From a virus: a DNA stretch of 64,000 nt. A model generated the notes under the pieces. That model searched no databases. It was not told the DNA's origin and worked only from the letters and a program-made list of their open reading frames with translations. Location: IMG/VR virus record IMGVR_UViG_3300017716_002931, positions 31,213 to 95,212 of that record; one strand, given 5' to 3'. Positions 4,906-25,983 of this stretch are shown here, piece by piece. How positions within the stretch are numbered: position 1 is the stretch's first letter; each line of letters starts with the position of its first letter. A program made the translations under genes and the position numbers.

Positions 4906-5448
4906 ATGGCAAAGAAAAAGATACTACTATTAAGCGACGATCTTAGAATGCACAGCGGTGTATCAACCATGTCAAGGGAACTTATAATGGGGTCAGTACA
5001 TCATTATGATTGGGTTCAAATTGGTGGTGCAAGAGAACACCCAGATGCAGGAAAAGTATTTGATCTCAACGATCAGGCCAGAAAACAAACAGGTGTGCAA
5101 GACGCATACGTGATGGTTTATGCAACAAAGGGTTATGGTAGCGAAGATTTATTGTTTTCAGTCATGGCCAAAGAAAAGCCCGATGCAATCATGCACTTCA
5201 CCGATCCAAGATATTGGAGGTGGTTGTATGCTCTCGAACGGGAAATCAGAAAGAAGACTCCCATCACATATTTAAACATTTGGGACGATCTTCCATATCC
5301 AATGTGGAACAAACCGTTTTATCAAAGTTGTGACTCATTGTTTAGTATCAGCAAACAGACCTACAACATCAACAAGTGGGTTCTCGGACCAGAAAATTGT
5401 ACCACCGTTAATGGAGATCTCGATAAAGAAGGAAATCTATGTCAGTAA
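4906..5448 (+). CDS. GT-B (GT4-like) glycosyltransferase, N-terminal domain
   Basis: KKILLLSDD..SGV, PDAIMHFTDPRYW, WDDLP, FSISKQT; no C-terminal Rossmann domain. Confidence 0.75.
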   Translation: MAKKKILLLSDDLRMHSGVSTMSRELIMGSVHHYDWVQIGGAREHPDAGKVFDLNDQARKQTGVQDAYVMVYATKGYGSEDLLFSVMAKEKPDAIMHFTDPRYWRWLYALEREIRKKTPITYLNIWDDLPYPMWNKPFYQSCDSLFSISKQTYNINKWVLGPENCTTVNGDLDKEGNLCQ

Positions 5449-6422
5449 AAGGAAAAACACTATTACATTACGTACCACACGGAATCAACGAAAACGTATT
5501 TAAACCTCTACCAGAGAATGACAAAGCGTTGAGTGAGGGTAAGAAACGTTTCTATAATGGAAAGACATATGATTATGCTGTGTTTTTCAATAGTAGAAAC
5601 ACAAAACGAAAACAAGTATCAAACCTGATTCTCGCATTTAAACTATTCTGTGATAGTTTACCAAAAGCAAAATCAGAACGATGCTGTTTGATTTTGCATA
5701 CAGAAATCATTGGTCAACACGGTCATGGTACAGATTTGCTTGCAGTTAAAGAAGCAATTTGTAGAGATTATGCGGTGTATTTTTCCCAAAAGAAAATCAC
5801 TCCAGATGAAATGAATCTCATGTACAATTTGGCAGATGTTACCATTAGTATTTCTAGCAATGAAGGATTTGGACTTAGTATTGCTGAATCTATCATGGCT
5901 GGTACTCCTGTTATTACAAATGTTACGGGTGGTCTTCAAGATCAAATCGGTCAACTAAATGACGAAGGAACCCCCGTGGAATTTACCCGTGAGTTTGGTT
6001 CTAACAACTGTGGTAGATACAAAACGCATGGTGTGTGGGCAAAACCTGTTTGGCCTTCGGCAATCGACATGCATGGAAGTGTTGAAACTCCATATATTTT
6101 TGACGATATGTTATACACATCAGATGTTGCTGACGCACTCATGTATTGGTATCTCGCGGGCTCTGAAACCCGTGAGAAGTGTGGGGTTGAAGGACGCAGA
6201 TGGGCACTAAATGAAGGTGGATTGAATGCACGTAACATGTGTGATCAATTGATCAAAGCAATGGACTTTACCATTGAAAACTTTGTTCCTGTATCTTCGT
6301 TCAGTATTCATAATACCGATGAGTATGTAAACCAAGTACAGCCAGAAAATCAAATTGGAGTGCCGTTCCGACCTGTGGATATCAACAAAATTCAAGAAGA
6401 GGTAAATAAGAAATTAGTATGA
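5439..6422 (+). CDS. GT-B (GT4-like) glycosyltransferase, C-terminal domain
   Basis: YVPHGIN, SRNTKRK, YNLADV..SSNEGFGLSIAES (EX7E motif); SD AGAAGGA before the ATG. Confidence 0.85.
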   Translation: MSVKGKTLLHYVPHGINENVFKPLPENDKALSEGKKRFYNGKTYDYAVFFNSRNTKRKQVSNLILAFKLFCDSLPKAKSERCCLILHTEIIGQHGHGTDLLAVKEAICRDYAVYFSQKKITPDEMNLMYNLADVTISISSNEGFGLSIAESIMAGTPVITNVTGGLQDQIGQLNDEGTPVEFTREFGSNNCGRYKTHGVWAKPVWPSAIDMHGSVETPYIFDDMLYTSDVADALMYWYLAGSETREKCGVEGRRWALNEGGLNARNMCDQLIKAMDFTIENFVPVSSFSIHNTDEYVNQVQPENQIGVPFRPVDINKIQEEVNKKLV

Positions 6423-7009
6423 ACATCAAAAAATTATCTGAAAAAGCAGTGATTCCGACCAAAGGCAGTTCTGGTGCTGCTGGTTATGACTTGTACACCA
6501 CGGAGTCATACGAATTAAAGCCCGGCGAACGTAAAGCATTCAAAACAGATGTTGCAATTGCAATTCCCGAGGGATTCTACGGTAGAGTTGCTCCACGCAG
6601 TGGACTTGCTGTAAAACATGGAATAGACGTACTAGCCGGTGTCATTGACAGTGATTATCGTGGAGAGATTCTGGTAGCACTTATCAACCTAAGTGATACT
6701 CCAATCTTACTTCCTATAATTAAAGATGGCAAGGAAACAGCTGTCGCACAAATCATATTTGAATCGTGTGCAACAGTCGTCAACGGATTCAGTGTAGTTG
6801 ATGATTTAACTGATACACAACGTGGTACGGATGGATTTGGAAGCAGCGACAACAAAAAGGTTGTTGATAACGCTGTTCCGTCAAACAATTCCAATCCTTC
6901 ACGTAAAACTATTGAAGATCTACTCAAACAAAAAGAAGTAGAATTTCAGGTGGGTCAAAAATATTCAGAAGCAATTCGTGATAGAGACAATAAACTTTTC
7001 AACAAATAA
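6419..7009 (+). CDS. dut: trimeric dUTPase with C-terminal extension
   Basis: AGYDL, APRSGLA, GVIDSDYRGE, AQII and RGTDGFGSS motifs. Confidence 0.95.
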   Translation: MNIKKLSEKAVIPTKGSSGAAGYDLYTTESYELKPGERKAFKTDVAIAIPEGFYGRVAPRSGLAVKHGIDVLAGVIDSDYRGEILVALINLSDTPILLPIIKDGKETAVAQIIFESCATVVNGFSVVDDLTDTQRGTDGFGSSDNKKVVDNAVPSNNSNPSRKTIEDLLKQKEVEFQVGQKYSEAIRDRDNKLFNK

Positions 7010-7010
7010 T

Positions 7011-9095
7011 ATGAGCAAACCATTGTGTGTTATACAAGCACCAGTCTTTAGTCGTAGTGGATACGGAGATTGGTCAAAAGAAGTTGTCAAAAGCGTTATT
7101 CGATATGACAAGTTTGATGTACGAATCGCTGCAACAAAGTGGGGTGGAAACGTAATCAAACGTACCGATGAAGAATTGGATCCATCAGATCCAATGAACA
7201 AGGTGTTGTTTGAAAAGACACTTCGAGAACCACTTAATAGACAACCAGACGTGTTTATTCAAATCTCCATTCCAAACGAATTCAATCCAATTGGCAAGTA
7301 CAACATTGGTATGACAGCAGGAATTGAAACCACAGCTGCAGCGGGTGAGTGGATTGAAGGATTGAACCGTATGAACGTGAACATCGTCACCTCAAAACAT
7401 TCAAAAAAGGTGTTTGTTGAGGCGGATTATACCCGAGAATACAAAGACGGCAGCGGAAGAAAGGAACCACTGCGTTCAGAAAAACCAATGGAAGTATGTT
7501 TCTGGGGTGCTAATACCAACGTATATAAACGCACCGACGAGAAGGTTGAGTCAATCGAAAAGATTATGTCAACCATTCCTGAGACGTTTGCGTTCTTGTT
7601 TGTTGGTCAGTGGACAAGTGCGGGTGCGTTTCACGATAGAAAAGATATTGGAAACCTAATAAAGACATTTCTAGAAACATTCAAGGATCGTGATCAAAAA
7701 CCGTGTTTGATTTTAAAGACGAGTGGAACAAATTTCTCAAAAATAGATCTCAACGAAACTCTCAACCGAATCAAGGTTGTAGAAACAATGGTACAAGGAG
7801 ATTTGCCAAAGGTATATTTGGTTCATGGTGAATTGAATGATGTAGAAATGAACGCACTCTATAACCATGAAAAAGTCAAGTGTCACATATCGTTCACGCA
7901 CGGTGAAGGATTTGGTCACCCACTACTACTTGCCTCTTTGAGTGGAAAACCCGTTCTTGCACCAAACTGGAGTGGCCAGTTGGACTTTTTGTCGTCAGTT
8001 CCAGATAACCTTTTTCAAGGTAAACTTGAACAACTAAATCCGGCATCAGTAAACCAATGGTTGATCAAAGACTCTGCTTGGTTCGTAGTATCAAACGGAC
8101 TCGCAGAAGATAAACTAAAACGAGCGTTTTTTGGTATGACTCAGAAGTCAAAAGACAAGTCAATTGAACTTGCTGAAAAAAACTCAAAAGACTTTTCGTT
8201 AGAATCGATGGACAAAGTTCTCCACGGAATTCTCGACACGTATGTTCCCGAGTTCGCTGTTGAACAAAAAATTGTGATTCCACGACTGATATTACCAACT
8301 TCTAACTCACCATCACTCGAATTTTTACAAGAAATCATCACATATAATTTAAATCAACCAAAAATTAGGTTTGGCAGAGAACAAGATGGTGGATATGTGT
8401 TATCAAATTATAAACTGGATGAAATAGAATCGGTTTATAGTTTTGGTGTGGATTGTGAAATGGAAATGGAAAAACAATTTAATAAAATTAATCCTAAAGC
8501 AAAAATACATTTATATGACCCAGCGGAAAAAATAGGATATTCTAGGTTCGATCATACCAAACACACAGAATTTCTAAAAAATCTACCAAGAGAATATTGT
8601 ACATTTGAAAGTATCGGTGTATGTGCAGAAAAAAATTCTTCTGATGTATTAAAATCATTAAATTATTTAATTGATAAAAATGGAGATTCAAATAAGAAAT
8701 TACTTCTTAAAATGGACATTGAAGGTGGTGAATTTGAAGTATTAAATGATGTAAAAAATGAAGTCTTAAACAAATTTCAACAGATGACTATTGAATTTCA
8801 TTTTGATTTATCTGGAAATGATTCAACGTTTTCCTTATATAGAAACGTATTCAAGAAATTGAATTCCATCTTTAATATATTTCATATTCATGCCAACAAC
8901 TATGGAATGGTTAAAAATATAAACGGTTATGACATACCAAGTGTTATGGAAATAAGTTTTGCGAATAAATCACTATTCACAAACTCTGTTTTATCAAAAA
9001 CATCAAACGAAGGAACTGAATATTTAGATTTTCCTAATAATGTGAATGCTCCCGAAATACAATTGGTGTCTTGGCCGTTTGTTAGAAATGTATAA
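7011..9095 (+). CDS. GT-B glycosyltransferase fused to an FkbM/Methyltransf_22-like methyltransferase
   Basis: N part: APVFSRSGYG, FVGQW..DRKD, HGEGFGHPLL. C part: RFGREQDGGY, YSFGV, LKMDIEGGEF, HIHANN. Confidence 0.8.
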   Translation: MSKPLCVIQAPVFSRSGYGDWSKEVVKSVIRYDKFDVRIAATKWGGNVIKRTDEELDPSDPMNKVLFEKTLREPLNRQPDVFIQISIPNEFNPIGKYNIGMTAGIETTAAAGEWIEGLNRMNVNIVTSKHSKKVFVEADYTREYKDGSGRKEPLRSEKPMEVCFWGANTNVYKRTDEKVESIEKIMSTIPETFAFLFVGQWTSAGAFHDRKDIGNLIKTFLETFKDRDQKPCLILKTSGTNFSKIDLNETLNRIKVVETMVQGDLPKVYLVHGELNDVEMNALYNHEKVKCHISFTHGEGFGHPLLLASLSGKPVLAPNWSGQLDFLSSVPDNLFQGKLEQLNPASVNQWLIKDSAWFVVSNGLAEDKLKRAFFGMTQKSKDKSIELAEKNSKDFSLESMDKVLHGILDTYVPEFAVEQKIVIPRLILPTSNSPSLEFLQEIITYNLNQPKIRFGREQDGGYVLSNYKLDEIESVYSFGVDCEMEMEKQFNKINPKAKIHLYDPAEKIGYSRFDHTKHTEFLKNLPREYCTFESIGVCAEKNSSDVLKSLNYLIDKNGDSNKKLLLKMDIEGGEFEVLNDVKNEVLNKFQQMTIEFHFDLSGNDSTFSLYRNVFKKLNSIFNIFHIHANNYGMVKNINGYDIPSVMEISFANKSLFTNSVLSKTSNEGTEYLDFPNNVNAPEIQLVSWPFVRNV

Positions 9096-9097: not shown

Positions 9098-9757
9098 ATG
9101 AATAATTCCCCATTTATATCATTTTTAGTAACGTGTCATAACGAGGGTGAACAACTCCGTCGTTTGTTGAATCTTCTTACAAAATACAACGATGGTAATG
9201 AGATAGTGATATTGGATGATTACTCTGATGACAAAGATACAGCGGACGTATTACATGAATATCAATCAGTTGTTGGTGTCAAATTGGTTGCGCATCATCT
9301 CGACAAAAACTACGGAGAACATAAAAATTACGGAAACTCTTATTGTAAAGGAAAATACATCTTTCAAATTGACGCAGATGAACTTCCCAACGAGGTTCTA
9401 CTTGATAATCTAAAATCCATTCTAGAATCAAACTCTGCAACCGAGATGTTTTGGGTTTCCAGGGCAAATAACTTTGTTGGAATAACTCCACTGGATATTA
9501 AAACATGGGGATGGAGAGTCAATGATCGTAATCATGTAAACTGGCCTGATTATCAGTCTCGTATTTACAAAAATCTATCCCATATCAAATGGGAGAGAAA
9601 ATTGCACGAAACCATTATTGGAATGAAGAGTTTTGCAAAGTTACCTGCACAAGAAGAACTATCTTTATATCACGAAAAAACTATAGAGAAACAACGTAGT
9701 GATAACCAACGATACACAAAAGATTTTAACGTTAACGACAACATTAGGAAAAAATGA
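9098..9757 (+). CDS. glycosyltransferase family 2
   Basis: ISFLVTCHNE, LDDYSDD, FQIDADE, PDYQSRI, LHE. Confidence 0.9.
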   Translation: MNNSPFISFLVTCHNEGEQLRRLLNLLTKYNDGNEIVILDDYSDDKDTADVLHEYQSVVGVKLVAHHLDKNYGEHKNYGNSYCKGKYIFQIDADELPNEVLLDNLKSILESNSATEMFWVSRANNFVGITPLDIKTWGWRVNDRNHVNWPDYQSRIYKNLSHIKWERKLHETIIGMKSFAKLPAQEELSLYHEKTIEKQRSDNQRYTKDFNVNDNIRKK

Positions 9758-10569
9758 TTACATGTGATATAGGACCACACGGTAGATTGGGAAACCAAAT
9801 GTTTCAATATGCATCATTGTTGGGCATTGCAACAAAACAAGGGTTGGAATATGGAATTGATTACAATCTCGGAGATAATCTATCTTGGAGAGAAAATGCA
9901 ATAGAACAATGCTCTCAAAAATTGACACTTGATAAGTGTTTTGATCTTTCCGCTAAACACTCAACGCCACCCTCCAAAACCATATATGAAGGGGCAGATG
10001 AGTATCATTTTCAAGAAAAGTTCTTTCATACAGGTGATGATGTAAAGATTCGTGGGTATTTTCAAACCAACAAGTATTTTGATCACATTGAAGATCAAAT
10101 ACGATCTGAATTCAAATTCAAACAAGATATCGTAGATGAATCGTCACACTTTTTGTCTTCAAAAAGACAAAACGAGTTGGTGTCTGTACACGTTAGACGA
10201 GGTGATTATCTACAATACACATGGCACGGAGTTTGTTCAAATCAGTATTATGGAAACGCATTGTCATCTCACTTCAGTGATAAATCGTACAACTTTGTTG
10301 TTTTGACTGATGACATTCCTTGGGCAAAAACAACGTTTTCTGGCAGTGAAAATATCTTTATATCAGAGACGCAAAATCAATATGTTGATCTATGTATAAT
10401 GATGTTATGTGATCATCACGTTATATCAAACAGTTCTTTTAGTTGGTGGGGAAGTTGGTTGAATCGTTCAAAAAATAAAAAAATCGTGGCACCTTCGACT
10501 TGGTTTAGAGAGCAACTTAAATCCTTAGATACCAAAGATTTATATCAACCCAATTGGATTATAATATGA
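9754..10569 (+). CDS. alpha-1,2-fucosyltransferase-like (GT11)
   Basis: GRLGNQMFQYA, GYFQ, VHVRRGDY, NSSFSWWG. Confidence 0.92.
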   Translation: MITCDIGPHGRLGNQMFQYASLLGIATKQGLEYGIDYNLGDNLSWRENAIEQCSQKLTLDKCFDLSAKHSTPPSKTIYEGADEYHFQEKFFHTGDDVKIRGYFQTNKYFDHIEDQIRSEFKFKQDIVDESSHFLSSKRQNELVSVHVRRGDYLQYTWHGVCSNQYYGNALSSHFSDKSYNFVVLTDDIPWAKTTFSGSENIFISETQNQYVDLCIMMLCDHHVISNSSFSWWGSWLNRSKNKKIVAPSTWFREQLKSLDTKDLYQPNWIII

Positions 10570-11570
10570 AATCGTATAACGTAAACAAACTATATAGTGA
10601 CCTGAAAATATCATCAAAAAATATGGAATCTCCCATGGAAAAACAATGGAGACGAAACGCCGATCCGTCTCTTCTTAAAAAACTTCAAGAAAATACACTT
10701 GACGTGAAAGAAATATCTGTTTTACCTACACCTAACGTCGGAGAAATATCTGTTTCGACGATACACTCTACCACCGGTGGAAAAGTAAATCTAAGAGATG
10801 TGACATTTATCATTCCAATCAAAATTGACAACAACGACCGATTGGAAAACTTCTACACCACGTTTGAATATTTAACTCAAAACCTAGATACCAACATCAT
10901 TATTTATGAAGCAGATTCAAAATCACAGATTGGAGATAAGTTAAATGGTAAAGTAACCTACATTTTTGAAAAAAATGATGGGCCGATATTCCACAGAACT
11001 AGATACTTGAACCATATGTTGAATATGGTCAACACGCCTGTAACCGTTAACTATGACATCGATGTTCTTTTGCCAATTGATTCGTATGTAACGGCTAGAG
11101 ATCGTATTATTAAAGATGAACTAGAGTTGGTGTATCCATATTGTTATGGTAATTGTCAACACAGAGTTAACCATAACGGCCGTAATAGTGTAAAAAATGG
11201 AAAATCTCTTGAAAACTTAGAAAATTCAGACTTTCAGGAAAAATCATTTTTGAGTTGGTATGGTCATTGTCAGTTTTTTAACACCGATGTATACAAGAAA
11301 TATGGTTGGGAAAATGAATACTTCATATCATATGGTCCAGAAGATTTAGAACGGTATCACAGATTTGTTAAACTAGATCGTAAAGTAGAACATTTGGATG
11401 GACGTATTGTTTATCATCTAGAACATGAACGTGGAAACAACTCGTCATCACAAAATCCATACTTTTCTCAAAACCATAAGTTGTTCGGTACGCTACAATC
11501 GTTTACCAAAACGCAGTTGATCGACTACTATAATTCAGTGGAATACATCTCGAAATATATTACTCTATGA
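10554..11570 (+). CDS. GT-A glycosyltransferase (GT2/GT7 C-terminal galactosyltransferase-like)
   Basis: TFIIPIK, YDIDV (DxD), GWENEYFISYGPED, HLEH. Confidence 0.8.
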   Translation: MDYNMKSYNVNKLYSDLKISSKNMESPMEKQWRRNADPSLLKKLQENTLDVKEISVLPTPNVGEISVSTIHSTTGGKVNLRDVTFIIPIKIDNNDRLENFYTTFEYLTQNLDTNIIIYEADSKSQIGDKLNGKVTYIFEKNDGPIFHRTRYLNHMLNMVNTPVTVNYDIDVLLPIDSYVTARDRIIKDELELVYPYCYGNCQHRVNHNGRNSVKNGKSLENLENSDFQEKSFLSWYGHCQFFNTDVYKKYGWENEYFISYGPEDLERYHRFVKLDRKVEHLDGRIVYHLEHERGNNSSSQNPYFSQNHKLFGTLQSFTKTQLIDYYNSVEYISKYITL

Positions 11571-12241
11571 ATATTAATTTTGTTACATTTTCAAATTACA
11601 AATATACATCACAACAACAAAAACTCAATGAGTTTGCAAAAACATTGGGATTGAACTGCTTTCCGTATACATTCGACGAAATAAAATCCACCGACTTTTA
11701 TCTGTCACATTCAAAAATCCTTGATAGAGAAAAAGGCAGTGGATTTTGTCTTTGGAAACCGTACATCATACTTGAAACACTGAAAAAAATAGGCAACAAT
11801 GAAATTTTGTTTTATATAGACAGTGCAGACATCTTTACAAAAGATGCATTAGAAATCATAGAGAAGGAACTTACATCAAAATCTATGTGCTTTCTACAAG
11901 GAGGATATCAGAATCAAATGTATACAAAACGTGATACGTTTCATTACATGGGATGTGATTACGATAAATATTGGAAGGCAAATCAATGTGAAGCGGGCGT
12001 GTTGGCCGTAAAAAACAATAACCACACCATCGATTTTGTATCTGAATGGTTTGAATATTGCAAAGATGAAAGAATCATAACAGATGATCCAAACACTTGC
12101 GGTCTACCCAACTTACCAATATACGTAGATCACAGATACGATCAAAGTATTTTGTCTAATTTAATCGTTAACCACAACCAACTATATTTTCACAATGGCA
12201 TTCGTAATTATATTAGATGTAACGTAAACAATTGTGACTAA
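11567..12241 (+). CDS. putative GT-A glycosyltransferase
   Basis: LWKPYII, YIDSAD, HRYDQSILS; located in the GT operon. Confidence 0.6.
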   Translation: MNINFVTFSNYKYTSQQQKLNEFAKTLGLNCFPYTFDEIKSTDFYLSHSKILDREKGSGFCLWKPYIILETLKKIGNNEILFYIDSADIFTKDALEIIEKELTSKSMCFLQGGYQNQMYTKRDTFHYMGCDYDKYWKANQCEAGVLAVKNNNHTIDFVSEWFEYCKDERIITDDPNTCGLPNLPIYVDHRYDQSILSNLIVNHNQLYFHNGIRNYIRCNVNNCD

Positions 12242-12246: not shown

Positions 12247-13056
12247 ATGATTAGCGTAAATTTAACTGTGCACAACAAAGCATTTCTTTTAGAAAGAGTT
12301 TTAGAAGGAATTAAAATAAATACTGTTGGATCATATGAATTGGTCGTGGTTCTTGATGGGTGTACGGATGAATCAGAACTCATTCTTGACAACTTCATTG
12401 CGTCAAATCATTCAATACACATAAAGAAGTTCTATGCACCCAATGTATTTGAAACCAAATCAAACAACATTGCTGCAAGAAACAGCGAGGGCGATCATAT
12501 CATTATTGTTCAAGACGACATGATAGTTAAAGAACACGGATGGAATGTCAGAATGTTGAAGCCAATACAAGCATTCAGTGATGTTTTTGCTGTTACGTCT
12601 AGAACCGCCCACAATTGGATATTAAACCCAAATTCAAAAGACGTTAACAAAGATGACTTTCATGGAAATGGTTGGGCAGACATTCTGTTTCATATGGATC
12701 ACGCTGATAGAAACAACATAAACCGTGAGACTTTTGCTCTACGAGATTCAGTGAATAGAGGTCCGTTGTTGTTGAAACATAATGTGTTACAAGAGTTGGA
12801 TTATTTTGACGAAGAATTTTCTCCACAAGACATGGACGATCACGATCTGTGTTATAGAGCTTTTAAAAAAGGTTATAAATCCGGTTGTTATTGGATAGAT
12901 TTTGAATCTCAAGATTCTTGGGGTGGAACAAGAGAAAATAACAAACCAAGGAAGTGGTTGTTGATGTCAAATTTCAAGAACAGCAAAATTCTTCTATCCA
13001 GACACAGAGATTTAATCTGTGGATCAAAACGCAATCAAAACTTACATCTTCCATGA
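12247..13056 (+). CDS. glycosyltransferase family 2
   Basis: LTVHN, LDGCTDES, VQDDM, YFDEEF..DDHDLCYRA. Confidence 0.88.
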   Translation: MISVNLTVHNKAFLLERVLEGIKINTVGSYELVVVLDGCTDESELILDNFIASNHSIHIKKFYAPNVFETKSNNIAARNSEGDHIIIVQDDMIVKEHGWNVRMLKPIQAFSDVFAVTSRTAHNWILNPNSKDVNKDDFHGNGWADILFHMDHADRNNINRETFALRDSVNRGPLLLKHNVLQELDYFDEEFSPQDMDDHDLCYRAFKKGYKSGCYWIDFESQDSWGGTRENNKPRKWLLMSNFKNSKILLSRHRDLICGSKRNQNLHLP

Positions 13057-13661
13057 AATTTTCAGATACATTCAAACAACAATATTATCCTCAGATGTTC
13101 AGACCTGCACATCCTGCAAATCCAATTCGTAATAGAGGAGACAATTTTCAGTTCGTATTTGAGTATTTGGAGAAAATCAAAAATCCCGTTATACTTGAAA
13201 CTGGAGTTATGCGTTCAGATCACGGAGACATGGCATTTGGCGATGATGGATGTAGTTCATTTTTGTTTGATCAGTTCATAAATGTTCATGGTGGATTTTT
13301 TACATCTGTTGATATCAATGAAAACAATTGTCGTCATGCTAGATCAAAAGTAAGCAACAGATCAACTATAGTGTGTTCTGACTCCATACCGTTTCTGTGG
13401 AATTACAAAGAAAAAGTTGATATGGTATATCTCGATTCATTCGATCTTGATTTAAAAAATCCAAATCCATCACAAATTCATCATCTCAAAGAATTATGCG
13501 CAATAGTTAAAAACCTACAGAGTCACACTTTGATTGTAATTGATGATCACATGACCCGAGATAATATGGGAAAAGGGTATCTGATCAAAGAATTTATGGC
13601 ACAAATAGGAAAAACTCCTATTTTTGAAAACTACCAACTTGGTTTTATTTTTGGAGACTAA
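13053..13661 (+). CDS. class I SAM-dependent methyltransferase (Methyltransf_24-like)
   Basis: ILETG, SVDIN, SDS, YLDSFD, IVIDD; ATGA overlap with the upstream gene. Confidence 0.75.
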   Translation: MKFSDTFKQQYYPQMFRPAHPANPIRNRGDNFQFVFEYLEKIKNPVILETGVMRSDHGDMAFGDDGCSSFLFDQFINVHGGFFTSVDINENNCRHARSKVSNRSTIVCSDSIPFLWNYKEKVDMVYLDSFDLDLKNPNPSQIHHLKELCAIVKNLQSHTLIVIDDHMTRDNMGKGYLIKEFMAQIGKTPIFENYQLGFIFGD

Positions 13662-13728
13662 CACTTTTATGGAAAACATTGAGATATACCATGAGTGATT
13701 TGCTTCAGTATTGGTTAAACAAAATATA

Positions 13729-16402: not shown

Positions 16403-16418
16403 TTGAGAATAAAACAAC

Positions 16419-17357: not shown

Positions 17358-17358
17358 T

Positions 17359-18159
17359 ATGCGAATTTTTATTTTAGGTTCGTCCGGCATGCTCGGAACA
17401 TATTTGAAACAACTGTTCAAATCAAAATACGAAACAATATGTCCAGACAGAAACGATGTTGATTTTTGTGATGATGAAAGTAAAATCTGCGATTTTTTTC
17501 AGCGTAATTCAATAAATGAACATGATATCATCATTAACTCTGCTGGTATAATCAAACAGAGGAAATCAAGTTTGGTGGAAATGGTGAAAGTTAACAGCTT
17601 GCTTCCTCATGTATTGACAAAAATCAAAGAAAAAAGCAACTGTCAAGTAATTCATGTAACTACAGATTGCGTGTTTAGTGGGAAAAAAGGAAGATATATA
17701 GAAACAGATGTACACGATTGTGAAGACGAATATGGAAAGAGTAAATCTTTGGGAGAAAACACCTCCTTAACAATAATCAGAACTTCAATTATCGGGGAAG
17801 AGTTGAAAAACAAATTGTCACTGTGTGAGTGGGTCAAATCTCAGAACAATAAAACTGTAAATGGTTTTACCAACCACTACTGGAACGGATTAACGTGTTT
17901 GGAATTAGCTAAAACAATAGATCAAATCATAACAAACAATGACTTTTGGAAAGGTGTTAGACATTTGTACTCTCCAAATACCGTTTCTAAATACGAACTT
18001 ATAGAAAGTATCGCAAAACATTTCAATATTACATTAAAAATCAATGCAGTTCAATCAAACGATTGTTTTAGAAATCTAGATTCGATACATCAGTCAAAAT
18101 ACACAATTCGAGACTTGAATAAACAAATAAACGAGTTATCAAAATATGAACTGTTATGA
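17359..18159 (+). CDS. NDP-4-keto-6-deoxyhexose reductase (RmlD family)
   Basis: GSSGMLG, TTDCVFSG, YGKSKSLGE, RTSIIG. Confidence 0.88.
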   Translation: MRIFILGSSGMLGTYLKQLFKSKYETICPDRNDVDFCDDESKICDFFQRNSINEHDIIINSAGIIKQRKSSLVEMVKVNSLLPHVLTKIKEKSNCQVIHVTTDCVFSGKKGRYIETDVHDCEDEYGKSKSLGENTSLTIIRTSIIGEELKNKLSLCEWVKSQNNKTVNGFTNHYWNGLTCLELAKTIDQIITNNDFWKGVRHLYSPNTVSKYELIESIAKHFNITLKINAVQSNDCFRNLDSIHQSKYTIRDLNKQINELSKYELL

Positions 18160-19249
18160 TCTTCTAATAGTAGGAAGTGGTGTATTTGGAAGTGTTTTTG
18201 CTCAACAAGCAACAGAACACGGATTAAAATGTCTCATCATCGACAAACGTTCACATAATGCCGGAAATGCTTATACGGAAAACGTCCATGGCATCAATGT
18301 TCACAAATATGGTCCTCATATTTTCTGGACACCAAACACAGAAGTTTGGGAATACGCAAATCGTTTTGCAAAATTTAATCACTTCACAAATCGTGTAAAA
18401 GTAAATAACCAAAACAAGATCTACTCATTTCCAATAAACCTGTTAACCATGCATCAGATGTTTGGGTGTAATACGCCCGAAGAAGCGGTTGCAAAGTTAG
18501 ACTCTGTTCGTCTTAAAATAGAAAATCCATCGAACTTGGAAGAACATCTACTATCAACTGTAGGTGAAGAAATTTACCACAAGTTTTTTTACGGATACAC
18601 CAAAAAACAGTGGGGTAGAGAACCAAGAGAGTTGCCCAAAAGCATCATAACTAGAATTCCTATCAGAACAAACTTTGACGACAATTACTTATTCGATTGT
18701 CATCAGGGAATTCCAATCGGCGGTTACACAAAAATGTTGGAGAACATGCAAGTTGGGTGTGATCTGATTCTCAATGAAGACTATTTGCAAAATAGAGAAT
18801 CGTGGGACAACGTGGCAAAGAAGGTGGTGTATACCGGTGCTCTTGATGAATTTTGTGATTACAAGTACGGAGAACTCGAATATCGTAGTTTGAGATTCGA
18901 AGAGTCTATACTTAACAAAAAGGATTATCAGGGATGTGCAATAATGAACTTCACAGAAGAGTCAGTCCCTTATACTCGCATCGTCGAACATAAACACTTT
19001 GAATTTGGAAAGCAAGATGTTACAGTCATATCAAAAGAGTTTCCTCAGTCGTGGGAACGTGGTAAGGAAAAATACTATCCGATCAACGATGAAAAAAATA
19101 CGTATCTTTACCAACAATATAGATCTCTTTTCTCGGATGACTCAAAATACATTTTTGGTGGACGACTCGCAGAATACCGATACTACGACATGCACCAAGT
19201 GATTTCCTCAGCAATTCATAAATTCAAAAAATTCATAGGTAAACCATGA
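18146..19249 (+). CDS. glf: UDP-galactopyranose mutase (Glf paralog 2, canonical)
   Basis: GSGVFG, HKYGPHIF, YTKKQWG, RIPIR, LEYRSLRF, YTRIVEHKHF, GRLAEYRYYDM. Confidence 0.93.
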   Translation: MNCYDLLIVGSGVFGSVFAQQATEHGLKCLIIDKRSHNAGNAYTENVHGINVHKYGPHIFWTPNTEVWEYANRFAKFNHFTNRVKVNNQNKIYSFPINLLTMHQMFGCNTPEEAVAKLDSVRLKIENPSNLEEHLLSTVGEEIYHKFFYGYTKKQWGREPRELPKSIITRIPIRTNFDDNYLFDCHQGIPIGGYTKMLENMQVGCDLILNEDYLQNRESWDNVAKKVVYTGALDEFCDYKYGELEYRSLRFEESILNKKDYQGCAIMNFTEESVPYTRIVEHKHFEFGKQDVTVISKEFPQSWERGKEKYYPINDEKNTYLYQQYRSLFSDDSKYIFGGRLAEYRYYDMHQVISSAIHKFKKFIGKP

Positions 19250-20142
19250 AAATTCAAATAGTTACACACCTGCTTCCACACGAATTGGACGAGTTTGAAC
19301 GTCAATTGTGCGTATTGAGTTCATATCCAATAACTGACGATGAAGTTATTCTTGATGTTACATTGAACGTAAACACCGTTGATTGGGATAATGCAAAGAT
19401 TCCAATTGAGTTCTTCGTAGAGAAGTTCAATAAGCTTCAAAACTACGTCACTAAAACAAATTGGTGTAAACAAGCTTTGTTTGATGTAGATGACACAGGA
19501 AAATGTAAAGGAATAAATGACAAACGCCGTAACAGTATTCGTCAATATGCTGATACCGTCGATGCGTTTGTGTATTTGGACTCAGACTTGGTATTTCAAG
19601 ACTACACTCTTCCTTATTTGATTCATTGTGCTAAGACTGTCAAGAACAAATACTTCATACTAACCCCACAAATTCCAAAGATTTGGGATGCCACATGGGA
19701 TCATCTAGTCAACACTCGTTATATCGATAACCCATATGGAAGTGAACGATCATTCAATCCATATTATGGAACAAAAACAATTTCAGATGAAGTAACGCTC
19801 ATCAAATCGCCACAAATAAAACTCGGCGGAGGATGGTTCAACCTGTTTAGTTCCAATTTGTTGAAGTATACTGACATTCCTGATATTTTGGGCCCATACG
19901 GTGTGGATGACACTTATGTAATGTTCGCTGCCCAAATCATGCGACTCAATGGTGAAGATATAGAACAGTATATATTGAAGAATGTGATAGTAGCAGAGAA
20001 CTATCTACTTAGAAACAATCCGTACAAAGAGTTTATTCCGTATAAAACAGGTAGAGAAGATTACAAATCAATAGCAGAACAGAATTTGCGTGGATGTCTC
20101 AACGACTTTCAAGTAAAACATTCATATGTATTGAAAAAATGA
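19246..20142 (+). CDS. putative GT-A glycosyltransferase
   Basis: YLDSDL (DxD), GGGWF, YGVDDT. Confidence 0.6.
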   Translation: MKIQIVTHLLPHELDEFERQLCVLSSYPITDDEVILDVTLNVNTVDWDNAKIPIEFFVEKFNKLQNYVTKTNWCKQALFDVDDTGKCKGINDKRRNSIRQYADTVDAFVYLDSDLVFQDYTLPYLIHCAKTVKNKYFILTPQIPKIWDATWDHLVNTRYIDNPYGSERSFNPYYGTKTISDEVTLIKSPQIKLGGGWFNLFSSNLLKYTDIPDILGPYGVDDTYVMFAAQIMRLNGEDIEQYILKNVIVAENYLLRNNPYKEFIPYKTGREDYKSIAEQNLRGCLNDFQVKHSYVLKK

Positions 20143-20477
20143 ACGACGTAAATTCAATATGTTTCACAGTTGTATGTTTGTTGCTTTGGTTTCATACTGA
20201 AACCGTACTTTCTTATGCGCAACTATTCAGGTTGAGAAAGTTATTCAAAATATCCGACTTTGAAGAAGATAGAACGCATGATTTTACTATTGAATACCCT
20301 CAGTGGTTATATAAGAAACATCCTGGCTTTTTAACAAAACTATTGAGTTGCCCTTGGTGTATAGGATTTTGGATATGCTTATCATCCTGTTTATTCTGTA
20401 ACACGACCGACATGTTTTTTGCGGAATATTTGATATCAATGATCACATACTTTTTTGTATCAAATAAAATACTATGA
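20139..20477 (+). CDS. small membrane protein, DUF1360-like
   Basis: LLSCPWCIGFW motif with hydrophobic segments; ATGA-coupled start. Confidence 0.6.
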   Translation: MNDVNSICFTVVCLLLWFHTETVLSYAQLFRLRKLFKISDFEEDRTHDFTIEYPQWLYKKHPGFLTKLLSCPWCIGFWICLSSCLFCNTTDMFFAEYLISMITYFFVSNKIL

Positions 20478-20767
20478 ATGTAGGCAACTTCACAGAATTT
20501 TATAACCTGTTGAAAAACAATGATGCTATAACCAACACAATTCCACATCTTAGAGATTTTGTTGTGTTGGCAGAAACCTATCGTGATATGTGTTCTTGTG
20601 ATCGTAAATCAGAAAAACTACGATTGAAAACCGAGTGTGAATCTCAGTACAGAATACTTGTGACCACTGTTATTACCGCAAACATAAATGTATTCTTTAC
20701 CGTACTAAAACAATCTCACATTCGGTTCATTCATAACTGCGCCGTTATTCGAGAGTTTTCTCAGTAG
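20474..20767 (+). CDS. hypothetical protein
   Basis: ORF coupled to the upstream gene; ends the plus-strand operon. Confidence 0.65.
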
Positions 20768-22094
20768 ATTTGAAAATATATCGATCCTTGGTTAAGATGA
20801 TACGAGGATCTTCTCTCAAAGCATTTCGATATGGTGTGAATGAAATCTGTCGTCCCCACCCCAAGTCGTCAAGGATTTCTCTCTTTGTTACAGATACATT
20901 CTTTTCAATATACTTGACAATATCAACATACACCTTGCTGCGTTTGATGATTTCGTAGTCATCGAAGATGTTCCAGTTATCAAACCAAGTCAAAACAGTG
21001 TTCTTGATATTGAGACTATCAGCAATTTCTTCTAGTTTATTACGATGATCCAATTTGAAATTCTTGTTGTCCAATGCATGTTCTAACTTGTTCAAAAACT
21101 CAGTTTCATTTTCATAGAACAAGGGATAATCAATACCAACCATTTCAGGATAACACAACTTCTTTGGAAGAAGATATGGCAAACCCCTCGTTAAGCCGTC
21201 TGTAACACTCAAGGACCACGCAGAATATGTTTGGAAGTATCCAACACCAACATGCATCTGTTTGATAAAGTCAAAATACTTGTTTCTCTCAAGTTCAACT
21301 CTCTTGATGTAGGGCCTAGACTCTTCTGCCAATGTCACGTACACCGTGAAATCTTGCCGTTTTGCCCACAACTTATCCATTACAGATACAAAATCATTCC
21401 ATCCTGTATAATCGTTGGGTCGATGGTTGAAGAAAATGCTCTTATCGATGGTCTTATCGTCACTGAAATCACTGTCAGCAGGAAGATAGTGAGGTTGAAT
21501 AATACGATTGAGCTTATTGATAACATCAGCACTAAAGTTGTCCGCTGCTCTATCAAGAATCAAATCCTTCAGCCACCTAGAATTTACTCCACACTCTTCC
21601 ATCTCAAGAGTCCCAAGAATGTTCAAATCAAACACGTCCTTTGGATATCCGGTGTTTTCAGCTACCTCATACCAATGGCAATATCCAACAAACTTTGGTC
21701 TGATACCAGCGTTGTTGTAAAAATAATTTGCTAGTTGAAGAGTTTGTTCCGGAAGATGTGAATAGATTATGTCATAATCCTTATTATGCACATCAAGAAG
21801 ATCAGATACTTTATCCACATTGAAATGAATACGCATTGTATTCGGATAGCTAGGGAACTTATAGTAAATTTGTTCGGTGTTATCATATTGAAGCAATTTT
21901 GTGTGAGAAGGAGTTACTATAGTCCAAAAGATATCATCACGAATAGAACGTAGTGCTCGAATCACACTAGCCAATACAATTACATAAGAATCCTTCTCAA
22001 GATTTTCAGAGTATGTTATATTTGGCCATACCAAAATCTTGTGTTTGTATTCCTTATCCAGCTCAGATTGTTCCGTTTCAAAAAATTCACTCAT
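20745..22094 (-). CDS. GT-B glycosyltransferase with C-terminal HTH-like domain
   Basis: [32 protein letters not shown]; C-terminal [22 protein letters not shown] is wHTH-like. Confidence 0.7.
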
Positions 22095-23044
22095 GTTGTG
22101 TATGACACTATAGTCTTTTTCATTGAGTCTGTAAAGTTGTTATACTCAATCTTTCCAAGTTTATTGGTGTAGTCTTCAGTATTAATAGCATATCTAAAAT
22201 CATGACCTTTTCTATCACCAACAAACTTTATGAAGTCATAATCAACTGTTTGGCCAGTTACCTCTTCATAACATTGCTTGATAATATATACCAACAACAG
22301 ATTAGATAGTTCACGATCTCCTCCGATTAAATACTGTTCACCAATTTCTCCTTTTTCCAAAATGTTGATCAACGCATTGACGTGATCTTTAACATAAATC
22401 CAGTCACGGACATTTTTGCCATCGCCGTATACCGGTACTGGCAACCGTCGCATAAAGTGATCGATGCAGGTTGGTATCATTTTCTCTTTATACTGCCGTG
22501 AACCAAAATTGTTGCTACAGTTTGTTATGATTGTGGGAAGTTTATGGGTTACATTATAACTCCTTACCAACAAATCGCTAGCAGCTTTACTGGCTGCATA
22601 GGGGCTATTGGGTCTATAGGGAGAGTTTACTGTGAACGGCGAATCATTCGGTCCCAAACTACCAAACACTTCGTCTGTTGACACGTGGATAAACTTTTTG
22701 AGGTGATCAATAGAACGAACGCATTCTAGTAGATTGTGTGTTCCGACCACATTGGTTTGAATAAATGGGGCAGAGTTTTTAATGCTGTTGTCCACGTGAC
22801 TTTCAGCAGCAAAATGAACCACGTAATTCACATGAAAGGTTTTGAGTATAAACAAAACAAAATCTTTGGTGATATCTACGCTGAACTGTTTGTACCGAGA
22901 ATCCAATTCAAACGGAAGATTCTTATTGGCAGCATATGTCATTGAATCAATGTTAACAACCTGTTCAACATCGTCACGTTTAAGAATCTCTTCTATAAAG
23001 TGAGATCCTATGAATCCACATCCTCCAGTTACCAATATTCTCAT
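22091..23044 (-). CDS. rmlB: dTDP-glucose 4,6-dehydratase
   Basis: [53 protein letters not shown]. Confidence 0.95.
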
Positions 23045-24279
23045 ATCACCTCAAACTTTGGACATGGAACAATGAAGTGACCTCCCTCTTGTAGATACTT
23101 AACTTCACGTTTTTTGAATTCGTCGATGAAATGCCATGGAAGAACCAATAGATACTTGGGTTTAGCCTGTCTCATTTCTTCTTCTGAGTAGATTGGAATG
23201 TTTGTTCCCACCGTTTTTAATCCAAACTTGTATGGACTTCTTTCAGCTGCACCATCAATTAGGGTATTATCCAAACCGAAATATTGTAGAAGCGTGTTTC
23301 CCTTGGTAGACGCTCCATACACCCACACTTTGTCTCCTTGTGATTTTTTTAACGTAACAAACTCATGAACCGTATTTTTTAATTCACGCAACTTGTCGTA
23401 AAAATTGAGATAAAACTCAATGGTGTTTGCACCAATCTTGTTCTCATATTCAAACAATGAATTTACACGATATTGTGCAACATCTCTGTATGGCGCATTT
23501 GCAAATGACGTAAATGATGCGTCATTTTTTTGTAGATACACTCTGAATGATCCACCATTTACATCGTTTAGTTCACAATCGACAATCTTGAATTGGGTTT
23601 GTTGAAGAACATATGACAAAGAATGTAGAGTATAATACATCAGATGTTCATGACAAATATTGTCAAAAGCCATTTGTTGGATCATCAATGGGGTGTAACT
23701 CATTTGAATTATGAACATTCCGTCGTCCTTTAGAACCTCGTACACATCATTCAAAAATGATACGGGATCGGGCAAGTCATAAAACATTGCGATACACGTG
23801 ACAATATCACACTTACGTCCTTTGAATGTGCTTTTATCAAACGATTCTTTGGTAAAATAATCTTGTACAATTTCATCTGCAAATTTCTTGCTCTCTTTTG
23901 TATAAGACTCATTAGCAGGATCGATACCAATTTTTTCGTAGGTGTCAGGAACAAAACTCAATAGAGTTCCGTCATTACATGCAATGTCCAACCACAACGG
24001 TTGTTCGGTTGACTTATGTACAGACACACAACTATCCACAACGTTTTTAAGTTGGTTACGCATGGTTTGATTGGTGCCGGATCGATACCAATATCGACCA
24101 TACATTTTATTAGGATCAGCAGATTGTTCGAGTTGAACTAGTTTAGATGTTTTTGAGAACATCAACTTGAGTTCACTCTTATACTCATCGGGTGGCTGTT
24201 GTTGTACAAAATCTGATATGAACAAATTTCCGAGAGAAAACAGTTCGACCAATTCATCGTTGGCGACTCTACATTTCAT
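23041..24279 (-). CDS. NDP-hexose C-methyltransferase (Methyltransf_13/14 type)
   Basis: YWYRSG, DIACNDG, FDNICHEH, GGS, YGASTKGNTLL, LPWHF. Confidence 0.88.
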   Translation of the reverse strand: MKCRVANDELVELFSLGNLFISDFVQQQPPDEYKSELKLMFSKTSKLVQLEQSADPNKMYGRYWYRSGTNQTMRNQLKNVVDSCVSVHKSTEQPLWLDIACNDGTLLSFVPDTYEKIGIDPANESYTKESKKFADEIVQDYFTKESFDKSTFKGRKCDIVTCIAMFYDLPDPVSFLNDVYEVLKDDGMFIIQMSYTPLMIQQMAFDNICHEHLMYYTLHSLSYVLQQTQFKIVDCELNDVNGGSFRVYLQKNDASFTSFANAPYRDVAQYRVNSLFEYENKIGANTIEFYLNFYDKLRELKNTVHEFVTLKKSQGDKVWVYGASTKGNTLLQYFGLDNTLIDGAAERSPYKFGLKTVGTNIPIYSEEEMRQAKPKYLLVLPWHFIDEFKKREVKYLQEGGHFIVPCPKFEVI

Positions 24280-24283
24280 ATTA

Positions 24284-25147
24284 TTAATTCCAATTGTTTA
24301 AACAGTAGTCTAGTGCTTCGTTTACATCCCTCATTTTAATTCCCGTATCCAATAGTTTTTTATTACTCATCACACAATTAGAACGAGGAGTTTTTGCCGC
24401 TGTCTTATAGAAATCTTCCTCGTTATCAAAAAATTCAAACTCCCTATCTTTGGCGATTGTGTTTTTTATCTTCTCAATAACTTGTTTGGTTGTAACATGA
24501 CCAGTGTTAGTTACGTTGTAAGTCCCATATGGAACCTTCTTAAGAACACATTCAACACAAGCACGAACAAAATCTTCCTTATTAGAAATAGAGTTCTCAG
24601 CATCCAAAAGTTTTTTGTAATTCAACATTTTGGATAGATAATTCCTTGGATTATGATTTTCTTCAAAAGGAATCCTAAGTCTCCAAATATAGTGATTGTC
24701 GCCATTTCTACGAATCAAATCTTCTGCCAATGCTTTTGTTCCGCTATAAAAACTACAATTGTTGTGTTCAAAACTGAAATTAGGACGATCAATTTCCGTG
24801 AACGGGCTACCGTCGTTATTTCTTCCTGTGTAAATACATCCTGATGATACATGACCAAATGTTATATTGTGATCGTTACAAAAGATAGAAATCATGTCTG
24901 GTACACTGACATTTCCATAAATTGTATTGTGTTTGTCCGTCTCACACGCATCTACATTTGGTTTTCCAGTATATCCTGCGCAATTGATGATCGATGTCAA
25001 ACCCAACGCACCATGCAACAGTTTAAGCTGATTATATGTAAGTTCTTTTGTTGGGACGGAACAATTTCGAGTATCCACTCCTTTTTTGAAAAGTTGTTTA
25101 TGAAACTCTTGTCCAATATATCCCGACGACCCTAGTAATAATATCAT
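24284..25147 (-). CDS. NDP-4-keto-6-deoxyglucose 3,5-epimerase/4-reductase-like (NRS/ER, RmlD family)
   Basis: NCAGYTGKPNVDACE, SSGCIY, SFYSGTK, LRIP, PRNY, RSNC; no rmlC in the window. Confidence 0.8.
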   Translation of the reverse strand: MILLLGSSGYIGQEFHKQLFKKGVDTRNCSVPTKELTYNQLKLLHGALGLTSIINCAGYTGKPNVDACETDKHNTIYGNVSVPDMISIFCNDHNITFGHVSSGCIYTGRNNDGSPFTEIDRPNFSFEHNNCSFYSGTKALAEDLIRRNGDNHYIWRLRIPFEENHNPRNYLSKMLNYKKLLDAENSISNKEDFVRACVECVLKKVPYGTYNVTNTGHVTTKQVIEKIKNTIAKDREFEFFDNEEDFYKTAAKTPRSNCVMSNKKLLDTGIKMRDVNEALDYCLNNWN

Positions 25148-25983
25148 AATGATTCCAAGTAAGTTCTATATTCTGATTTTGGCATTTTATTTACCAACTT
25201 AGTTAACTGTGATCTATCTATAAATCCTTGATTCAGGCAATCTTCTTCAATACATGCAACTTTACATCCTTGACGGTCCTGAACCGTTTGTACGTAATTA
25301 CTAGCCTGAGATAGAGTTGTTGGTGATCCTGCATCCAACCAAGCCGTTCCTTTCGGCATTTTAATGACATTTAAGTTACCTGATTCCAAGTATTTACGGT
25401 TGATGTCGGTGATTTCAAGTTCTCCTCGTTTGGAGGGTTTTATACTCTTTGCATAATCTATCACTTTACCGTCGTAGAAATATAGGCCAGGAACGGCGTA
25501 TTTACTCTTAGGCGACGTTGGTTTCTCTTCTATGATCAACGCCTTGCCCGCGTCATCAAACTCAACCACACCGTATTCTTGTGGGTTGTTGACTTTATAG
25601 GCAAATATCACCGCACCTGTAAAGTCTACCCTCATTTTATTGAATCCGTGAAAAACGTTGTCTCCCAAGATCAATGCAATATTTTGTAGATCTATGAAAT
25701 CTTCAGCAATAAGAAACGATTGTGCAATTCCTTCTGGTTTTGGTTGGGCTTTGTATTCAATGTTTAATCCCAAATGATTTCCATCGCCAAACAACTTTTC
25801 ATATAGTGGAAGGAAATTGAAAGAAGAAATGATACAAATGTCTTTGATTCCACACGAAATCAATGTGGACAAAGGATAGTAGATCATCGGTTTGTCGTAA
25901 ACAGGCAATAGTTGTTTGTTCACCACCGTTGTAAGTGGATACAGTCTACTACCCGTTCCTCCCGATAAAATAATACCCTTCAT
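25144..25983 (-). CDS. rmlA: glucose-1-phosphate thymidylyltransferase
   Basis: GGTGSRLYP, KQLLPVYDKPMIYYPL, LGDN, EEKP, RGELEITD. Confidence 0.96.
   Translation of the reverse strand: MKGIILSGGTGSRLYPLTTVVNKQLLPVYDKPMIYYPLSTLISCGIKDICIISSFNFLPLYEKLFGDGNHLGLNIEYKAQPKPEGIAQSFLIAEDFIDLQNIALILGDNVFHGFNKMRVDFTGAVIFAYKVNNPQEYGVVEFDDAGKALIIEEKPTSPKSKYAVPGLYFYDGKVIDYAKSIKPSKRGELEITDINRKYLESGNLNVIKMPKGTAWLDAGSPTTLSQASNYVQTVQDRQGCKVACIEEDCLNQGFIDRSQLTKLVNKMPKSEYRTYLESL

Follow-up and report, generated by a model that had tools for sequence, protein, structure and literature searches.

The subject of this analysis is a block of sugar-metabolism genes at positions 4906-25983 of a 64,000-nucleotide stretch of viral DNA (hereafter, the window), the last 64 kb of the 95,212-bp linear virus record IMGVR_UViG_3300017716_002931, which has no terminal repeat. 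By Pfam, NCBIfam and Atlas comparisons and one AlphaFold model, the block encodes about 10 glycosyltransferases. Seven of these are well supported, namely, a split GT4 enzyme (5439-6422 with 4906-5448), the GT-B enzyme of 6978-9095, GT2 enzymes at 9098 and 12247, a GT11 enzyme at 9754, a CgeB-like enzyme at 14433 and a GT-B protein at 20745-22094; the other three (10554, 11567 and 19246) are weak candidates. These are accompanied by three methyltransferase domains (an FkbM domain within 6978-9095, a strong sugar C-methyltransferase at 23041-24279 and a sub-threshold class-I domain at 12954-13661), two GLF mutases and two 6-deoxysugar routes that are clear at the family level, a dTDP route with RmlA-, RmlB- and RmlD-like enzymes and a PseB/FnlA-like dehydratase with a reductase. 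Overlaps occur at 12 of the 19 plus-strand and five of the six minus-strand gene junctions, some of the starts having been re-read. This inventory largely agrees with a first-pass annotation made from the sequence alone, including the approximate number of transferases, the paired mutases and 6-deoxysugar routes and the tight coupling, except that the third methyltransferase is weak and a 'GT9-like' label was not verified. The same annotation treated the block as a single ~21-kb pathway, a view that has to be abandoned: the locus consists of three layers, a core common to the lineage, an extension that is hypervariable and a distinct operon that combines rml genes with a GT-B/winged-helix gene, and sugar genes are found beyond it as well.

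The core comprises the 4906 and 5439 genes, the portion of the 6978 gene that encodes the first ~430 residues of its product, and the 9098 gene. Among the 50 related contigs in IMG/VR (polB relatives), these are present in 44, 45, 46 (the N-terminal 61-63% of the 6978 product) and 43, respectively, and the core is also found in all five other large records. Behind the gene for a PD-(D/E)XK nuclease (3725-4621, plus strand; PF12705, E = 2.5e-19), the constant left neighbour of the core, two cultured phages, Flavobacterium phage immuto and Microcystis phage Mel-JY01, show the same order of two transferases, a GT2 enzyme and then variable sugar genes. The product of the first core gene (4906-5448, plus strand) has no Pfam match and is the N-terminal, acceptor-side half of a GT-B enzyme. 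It is 56% identical to the start of gp181, a 480-aa immuto glycosyltransferase, in frame with the part of gp181 that matches the product of the next gene (5439-6422, plus strand), the C-terminal, donor-side half of a GT4-type transferase (Glycos_transf_1, E = 1.4e-11). Because the two genes correspond to one protein in immuto, this phage encodes a genuinely split GT-B; the counterpart of the 4906 gene is a separate open reading frame (ORF) in Mel-JY01, too, so that the enzyme is split there as well. The 5439-6422 product is 40% identical to its Mel-JY01 counterpart. A contig from one lake DNA run omits 343 bases within this GT4 gene (window 5890-6234), which points to strain variation or to insertion of an element at this position.

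Inside the core, this clade carries a gene that is not a sugar gene, a dUTPase (6419-7009, plus strand; PF00692, E = 2.3e-33), which is missing from this position in immuto. The next gene (6978-9095, plus strand; likely true start, ATG at 7011) encodes a fusion of the core GT-B transferase (first ~430 aa; weak Glycos_transf_1/GT1 match) with an FkbM-type methyltransferase (28.7 bits). The immuto homologue of this GT-B is annotated as RfaG-type, and in G002-G006, homologues of 442-455 aa stand alone, so that the FkbM fusion is derived. The core is completed by a GT2 transferase of the GT-A fold (9098-9757, plus strand; PF00535, E = 2e-13). The products of the four core genes (4906, 5439, 6978 and 9098) are 56, 46, 39 and 42% identical to those of immuto, values similar to those of the tail tube (52%) and baseplate hub (45%) proteins and higher than those of DnaB, SSB and ribonucleotide reductase (RNR). 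The core transferases of immuto are gp181, gp180 and gp178.

The extension follows on the plus strand and begins with a semi-variable GT11 gene (9754-10569; PF01531, E = 3.3e-28), a member of the alpha-1,2-fucosyltransferase family. Next come two variable candidate GT-A transferases, both with matches below the cut-off (10554-11570, Glyco_transf_7C, E = 0.0095; 11567-12241, Glyco_transf_34, E = 0.0012), a GT2 transferase (12247-13056; PF00535, E = 1.3e-9) and a weak class-I methyltransferase (12954-13661, likely start ATG at 13053; Methyltransf_24, 17.8 bits, below the cut-off). The gene at 13711-14436 belongs to a small environmental family with 33 homologues, none of them named, and without Pfam, NCBIfam or PDB matches. 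It is followed by a GT-B transferase similar to CgeB and Glyco_trans_1_2 (14433-15419), for which an Atlas structure comparison yields template-modelling (TM) scores of 0.64-0.67 to PF13524 clusters (Pfam PF13524, E = 0.069). A divergent GLF-type pyranose-furanose mutase (15401-16402; GLF, 170 bits), a PseB/FnlA-like UDP-N-acetylhexosamine (UDP-HexNAc) 4,6-dehydratase (16419-17357; Polysacc_synt_2, 135 bits; TIGR03589, 146 bits, below its cut-off) and an RmlD-like reductase (17359-18159; RmlD_sub_bind, 78.5 bits) form a cassette, next to which lies a UDP-galactopyranose mutase gene (18146-19249; GLF, 250 bits) whose product is 85% identical to that of the nearest relative, G001. The protein encoded at 19246-20142 is found only in viruses and might be a GT-A (furanosyl)transferase, a lead that comes from Atlas feature matches near GT2 clusters. 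Two small membrane proteins (20094-20767) end the plus-strand block, one DUF1360-like (PF07098, E = 1.4e-4) with two predicted segments and the other with one; they stay beside this block in seven loci. Sequence searches against the PDB were unhelpful for 10554-11570, 13711-14436, 14433-15419, 19246-20142 and the minus-strand 20745-22094, as well as for 1080-aa and 455-aa proteins encoded upstream.

The extension changes rapidly between related phages. Among the 50 polB relatives, the GT11 gene is present in 16, the 10554 gene in nine and the 11567 gene in two, and the other extension genes occur only in the two closest. G001 lacks both the mutase/dehydratase/reductase cassette (15401-18159) and the C-methyltransferase of the minus-strand operon, whereas G003 carries at the same place a GT6 transferase, an HtrL_YibB protein, a DUF3431 protein and two FkbM genes instead. 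Additional sugar genes lie upstream in the same record. At genome positions 6083-7300, a GDP-mannose 4,6-dehydratase (GMD; 319 bits) is encoded that likely supplies the donor for the GT11 enzyme. A second island, at 18895-25531, includes a methyltransferase, a Fringe-like transferase and the 1080-aa protein, the N-terminal part of which is a paralogue of the 6978 GT-B. This protein was also considered as a relative of the GT-B/winged-helix protein, and hhalign comparison with the profile of the latter was negative. Further on, at 28660-30030 (minus strand), a HAD phosphatase/phosphomutase domain is fused to a nucleotidyltransferase domain in a protein that is 74% identical in G001 and, judging by its domains, is a candidate for a one-protein sugar-1-phosphate activation step.

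The third layer is a minus-strand operon with genes for an RmlA-like thymidylyltransferase (25144-25983; NTP_transferase, 201 bits), an RmlD-like reductase (24284-25147; RmlD_sub_bind, 79.7 bits), a sugar C-methyltransferase (23041-24279; Methyltransf_14, 146 bits), an RmlB-like 4,6-dehydratase (22091-23044; GDP_Man_Dehyd/Epimerase, 217 bits) and a protein that joins a GT-B fold to a C-terminal winged-helix domain (20745-22094; AF2 pLDDT 88). This last protein has no Pfam match and 594 homologues of the same length that are at least 47% identical to it. No homologous gene was detected in 50,697 GenBank phage records, and neither immuto nor Mel-JY01 carries one. A Foldseek search with the AF2 model retrieved BshA, MshA and PimA at E ~1e-10, whereas the family profile found only chance matches among PDB sequences. 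With the isolated winged-helix domain, Foldseek returned generic winged-helix matches (E > 0.08) that do not separate DNA-binding from protein-binding types; the third helix of this domain carries invariant Arg and Tyr residues. Across 80 loci, the gene is usually accompanied by a DruA-like gene, polB, clamp-loader genes and Mom-like genes. The most constant of these neighbours (48 of the 80 loci) encodes a protein with the DruA domain of the Druantia defence system and lies in the window at 29614-30798 (minus strand; PF14236, 82.5 bits). In distant relatives, the GT-B/winged-helix gene is surrounded by replication genes and has no rml genes beside it; an intermediate clade has it immediately upstream of the core, with both on one strand; and rml genes precede it only in the subclade that includes this phage (L064-L070). 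The gene belongs to the core set of a broader group of uncultured phages.

The window also encodes a family-B DNA polymerase (polB), class I RNR, DnaB helicase, an exonuclease, UvsX, SSB, a tape measure protein and a baseplate hub protein. Together, polB, RNR, UvsX, tape measure and baseplate hub identify a large tailed phage, in agreement with the origin that the first-pass annotation had assumed. The best polB match among isolates is that of Mel-JY01 (43.6% identity). The gene order typical of immuto is retained, with a divergent PolA followed by SSB, UvsX, exonuclease, DnaB and RNR, plus a separate 'regular' polymerase; this order is that of the divPolA1 group (PMC11348598), to which this phage belongs by the presence of divPolA1, SSB, recombinase, exonuclease, DnaB and RNR in succession and a separate polymerase. 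The divergent PolA-like protein (48399-49742, minus strand) is 29% identical to immuto gp001 across 94% of its length, and the regular family-B enzyme (2-2653, minus strand) is the second polymerase in a two-polymerase arrangement like that of the immuto group (PMC11348598). The lineage is that of large T4-like aquatic phages including immuto and Mel-JY01, the cultured members infecting one Flavobacterium and one Microcystis, that is, Bacteroidota and Cyanobacteria. Collinearity with the nearest relative, G001 (171,680 bp; polB 82% identical), extends over the entire record. A 77%-identical homologue (P0123) of the protein encoded at window 13729-14433 is found on a 289,645-bp contig. The genomes of this clade might therefore be much larger than those of the immuto group (155-190 kb), which would fit the low CheckV completeness estimates. 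More than 10 metagenome studies of freshwater and lake sites contain near-identical sequences. No match among GenBank phages was obtained by megablast with the locus or with the replication and tail region. Metatranscriptome contigs from three lake studies cover genes of the locus at 99-100% identity; they are short and possibly DNA-derived, and allow no ranking of the genes. The T4 late-promoter octamer TATAAATA has seven copies in the window, all pointing the same way (3718, 29601, 36040, 39573, 59158, 61274 and 62636), and four of them are 13-36 nt upstream of minus-strand genes, reading TATTTATA on the coding strand. The copies precede mostly minus-strand genes and are uninformative on when the glycan block is expressed.

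The machinery for exporting a lipid-linked glycan is missing. Searches with PF02397 (Bac_transf) and PF00953 (Glycos_transf_4), and with PF01943 (Polysacc_synt) and PF04932 (Wzy_C), yielded no match in this record (G000) or in G001-G003, the controls being matched. A hydrophobicity scan of this record, G001 and the complete 160,410-bp immuto genome detected no ORF with at least four predicted segments other than the tape measure gene and one 381-aa immuto ORF with four. The initiating polyprenyl-phosphate glycosyl-phosphotransferase, flippase, polymerase or ABC-2 permease that mark O-antigen and capsule loci were not found, G000 being a fragment; the absence of Wzx/Wzy, exporter and priming transferase noted in the first-pass annotation is therefore borne out and extends to a complete cultured relative, and a full lipid-linked export pathway, which that annotation proposed to look for elsewhere, turned up neither in G000-G003 nor in immuto. 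The integrase domain PF00589 has no match in five records, so classical lysogenic serotype conversion is unlikely, in line with the first-pass annotation. Unlike gtrABC/oac/wzy-type conversion modules, the system comes with no integrase in these five records and no many-pass membrane proteins, in a phage that has its own replication apparatus. What is present, soluble transferases and nucleotide-sugar enzymes without lipid-carrier machinery, is the gene complement expected for autonomous virion glycosylation. Since export genes are absent, a target made by the phage itself, such as the virion, is probably decorated.

The best reading of the locus, by analogy with known viral systems and still a tentative one, is that the glycan is attached to a phage-made protein, probably a virion component. 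If the acceptor is a protein supplied by the phage, three features are explained at once: a core that is conserved, a periphery that varies and export genes that are missing. In such a scheme, an export-less system of soluble enzymes only would build the glycan, and we infer the order of sugar addition, the acceptor and the benefit to the phage as follows. The three core transferases (the GT4 in two polypeptides, the second GT-B and the GT2) would lay down a conserved inner oligosaccharide, which strain-variable transferases, O- and C-methyltransferases and nucleotide-sugar cassettes would extend. The cassettes point to UDP-galactofuranose (UDP-Galf), a second furanose, a UDP-6-deoxy-HexNAc and a dTDP-6-deoxy(C-methyl)hexose as probable donors, and GDP-fucose could be made via the GMD whose gene lies outside the block. 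The cytoplasm of the infected cell would be the site of assembly, on an acceptor supplied by the phage, most likely one or more virion proteins, as in the case of the chlorovirus capsid and mycobacteriophage virion glycans.

Several observations weigh against this assignment. The record is a fragment (CheckV completeness, 31%) that does not include the capsid and outer-tail genes. The locus lies in the replication region, unlinked to virion genes, which is not the linkage seen in mycobacteriophages: it is located between polB/PD-(D/E)XK and clamp-loader/replication genes here, in G001 and in Mel-JY01, and after the lysis genes in immuto. Solubility does not discriminate between the possibilities because transferases acting on lipid-linked intermediates also lack membrane segments, and the retention of the core in phages of different host phyla is a hint rather than proof, given that acceptors linked to undecaprenyl phosphate (Und-P) are common to all bacteria. 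A candidate attachment motif, [S/T]-[G/A]-S, shows no enrichment in the proteins of this fragment and only a mild one in G001. In immuto, it is strongly over-represented in tail-spike and fibre proteins (gp101: 53 observed versus 12 expected), in the form [S/T]-[G/A]-S-[F/Y/L/I] (NC_055915.1 97658-100819, 135075-136196 and 97009-97644), where the repeats may be either a structural repeat or a modification site. A literature search found no virion chemistry bearing on protein glycans for this lineage. The virion acceptor is accordingly a candidate suggested by analogy: of the virion-protein glycan proposed in the first-pass annotation, the fit of the export-less soluble gene set stands, whereas the location of the locus away from virion genes keeps the acceptor conjectural.

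The glycan could instead be destined for the host surface, the oligosaccharide being assembled on a host lipid carrier (for example, a host-primed Und-PP-sugar) and exported by a host flippase, ligase or ABC transporter. GT11, GT2 and GT4 enzymes (RfaG- and HtrL-type in relatives) and routes to Galf and 6-deoxyhexoses are typical of O-antigen and lipopolysaccharide (LPS) loci, comparable hypervariable islands in cyanomyophages are mostly interpreted in this way (PMC12801897), peripheral membrane transferases work without membrane segments, and the plus-strand block ends with two small membrane proteins. However, no priming transferase, flippase, polymerase, ligase or ABC permease was detected in four large fragments or in the complete related genome, the core transferases are retained at the level of structural proteins between phages of different host phyla, and, with no integrase, there would be no long-lived lysogen to gain from the change. 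Moreover, export would require a host flippase that tolerates a foreign, strain-variable glycan. On balance, remodelling of the host surface, which would alter the LPS or capsule, for instance, to block superinfection or re-adsorption of progeny, appears less likely than a phage-made acceptor. It is improbable that the product is another cytoplasmic compound, such as a soluble methylated polysaccharide of the mycobacterial methylmannose polysaccharide/methylglucose lipopolysaccharide (MMP/MGLP) kind, or that host proteins or small molecules are glycosylated during host take-over. The soluble enzymes, the methyltransferases and the lack of an exporter would all be compatible with such a product, and the structural matches of the GT-B/winged-helix protein include a methylmannose-polysaccharide mannosyltransferase, BshA and MshA; but any GT4-like fold returns matches of this kind, and the variety of sugars and fast turnover of transferases better suit an exposed glycan that is recognised from outside.

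There is also little probability that some or all of the transferases add sugars to phage DNA bases as an anti-restriction device, the best candidate for such activity being the GT-B/winged-helix protein fed by the rml operon, beside which lies a deoxynucleoside monophosphate (dNMP)-kinase-like gene. GT4-like enzymes are known to glycosylate phage DNA (PMC13326640), the GT-B/winged-helix gene is located among replication genes in most relatives and its product carries the invariant Arg and Tyr in the third helix, and the dNMP-kinase-like gene, a dUTPase and a ThyA homologue are all present. Yet no enzyme that makes a hydroxylated base was identified (ThyA-type hydroxymethylase, 5-hydroxycytosine (5hoC) synthase, or C5-methyltransferase plus TET/JBP). 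The ThyA homologue is a canonical thymidylate synthase (Asn of PFN(V/I)AS, TS-type C-terminus), and G005 and G006, the most complete carriers of the GT-B/winged-helix gene, have no ThyA-family gene. PF12851 (TET/JBP) and PF00145 (C5-methyltransferase) had no match, a weak negative for PF12851 as its control matched nothing either. The thymidylate synthase (genome 126-1331) contains two insertions relative to bacterial enzymes (~115 and ~38 residues), with the active-site Cys, the Asn of PFNVAS and the TS-type C-terminus intact. The winged-helix matches are generic and include protein-binding types. Reported DNA glycans are one to three sugars long, so that about 10 transferases would be needless. 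Furthermore, the phage already has a DNA modification gene of the Mom family. The Mom-family protein (36384-37166, minus strand; PF25680, 132 bits) makes adenine 'momylation' of the phage DNA plausible; it is absent from G001, and several copies are found near polB in distant relatives.

Evidence on DNA also comes from the cultured phage: in immuto virions, analysis by liquid chromatography with ultraviolet and tandem mass spectrometric detection (LC-UV-MS/MS) found dA, dC, dT and fdPreQ1 only (PMC10516641). Immuto carries the core triad and has DNA without a glycosylated nucleoside (PMC10516641), which makes DNA an unlikely target of the core and weakens the option, left open in the first-pass annotation, that DNA is the acceptor. 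The absence of a glycosylated base in immuto, along with the lack of a known route to a base that could be glycosylated, favours a phage-made protein acceptor. For the GT-B/winged-helix operon, DNA stays a minority option because immuto, the source of the DNA chemistry, lacks that gene. Specifically, the minus-strand operon (dNMP-kinase-like gene, RmlA, reductase, C-methyltransferase, RmlB and GT-B/winged-helix) might be a separate system that transfers a branched 6-deoxyhexose to phage DNA or to a replisome component without a hydroxymethyl- or hydroxy-pyrimidine precursor, a proposal that we regard as very unlikely. If true, the GT-B/winged-helix protein, encoded by a core gene of the replication module in hundreds of uncultured aquatic phages, would represent a new kind of glycosyltransferase directed at nucleic acid or the replisome.

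As a kind of system, the locus is already known: it is an export-less phage glycan island. What is new is the triad of core transferases kept throughout the lineage, together with the split GT-B, the separate GT-B/winged-helix gene and the connection to two phages in culture. Many 'LPS-like' genes are commonly present in large virulent aquatic phages, and their target has been a question ever since the first cyanomyophage genomes. On this question, the present analysis adds a three-enzyme core conserved as strictly as tail proteins across host phyla and surrounded by a fast-changing periphery, and the published DNA chemistry of a cultured member, which speaks against a DNA target. Given that immuto and Mel-JY01 are in culture and have the same core, the target is directly testable. 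If the glycan is on the virion, these phages would build strain-specific sugar coats in the manner of chloroviruses, with a bearing on adsorption, grazing and recognition by host defence.

The closest counterparts are the blocks of immuto and Mel-JY01, which are homologous and syntenic, with the PD-(D/E)XK nuclease, the GT4 (fused in immuto, split in Mel-JY01), the GT-B and the GT2 followed by a methyltransferase and variable sugar genes, in genomes with the same replication backbone of divPolA1, SSB, UvsX, exonuclease, DnaB and RNR (PMC11348598). These blocks span ~11 kb and ~6.5 kb, respectively, compared with ~21 kb and further islands here, and immuto has amino-sugar genes (WecE-type) where this phage has the Galf and 6-deoxy routes; a literature search found no paper that discusses either block. 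The parallel with giant eukaryotic viruses drawn in the first-pass annotation holds: chlorovirus PBCV-1 encodes soluble transferases without membrane segments that act in the cytoplasm, a multidomain GT-methyltransferase, A064R, and a GMD of its own, and chloroviruses share a core oligosaccharide to which strain-specific additions are made (PMC5408694). The likeness includes the soluble transferases, the GT-methyltransferase fusion, the GMD and the conserved core with variable decoration. It is one of gene content, and there are differences: chloroviruses infect eukaryotes, have a known acceptor, Vp54, and scatter their transferase genes, whereas here the genes form coupled operons.

Among phages, the virion O-glycosylation cassettes of mycobacteriophages consist of two to four genes beside structural genes, as opposed to ~25 genes in the replication region here. 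Phage-encoded transferases of that type glycosylate capsid and tail-tube proteins, according to the summary of Freeman et al. 2023 in PMC12619734. Phage DNA glycosylation systems, such as glucosyl-hydroxymethylcytosine (hmC) of the T-even phages and arabinosyl-5hoC of RB69, DLP3 and HY126, likewise combine a GT4-like GT-B, a dNMP kinase, a pyrophosphatase and nucleotide-sugar genes near replication genes (PMC13326640), but need a ThyA-type hydroxymethylase/hydroxylase or a TET enzyme, neither of which was found here. The cyanomyophages P-SSM2, S-SCSM1 and S-SCSM2R carry 'LPS / cell-wall' islands with many transferases (13 in S-SCSM2R) and nucleotide-sugar enzymes, the target of which is unproven (PMC12801897). 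These resemble the present locus in being variable, transferase-rich islands of virulent T4-like aquatic phages, and differ in that they belong to another lineage, in which no conserved core triad has been described, and in that S-SCSM2R is reported to have pgaA-like export and Kdo genes, which are not seen in this phage with its lineage-wide core.

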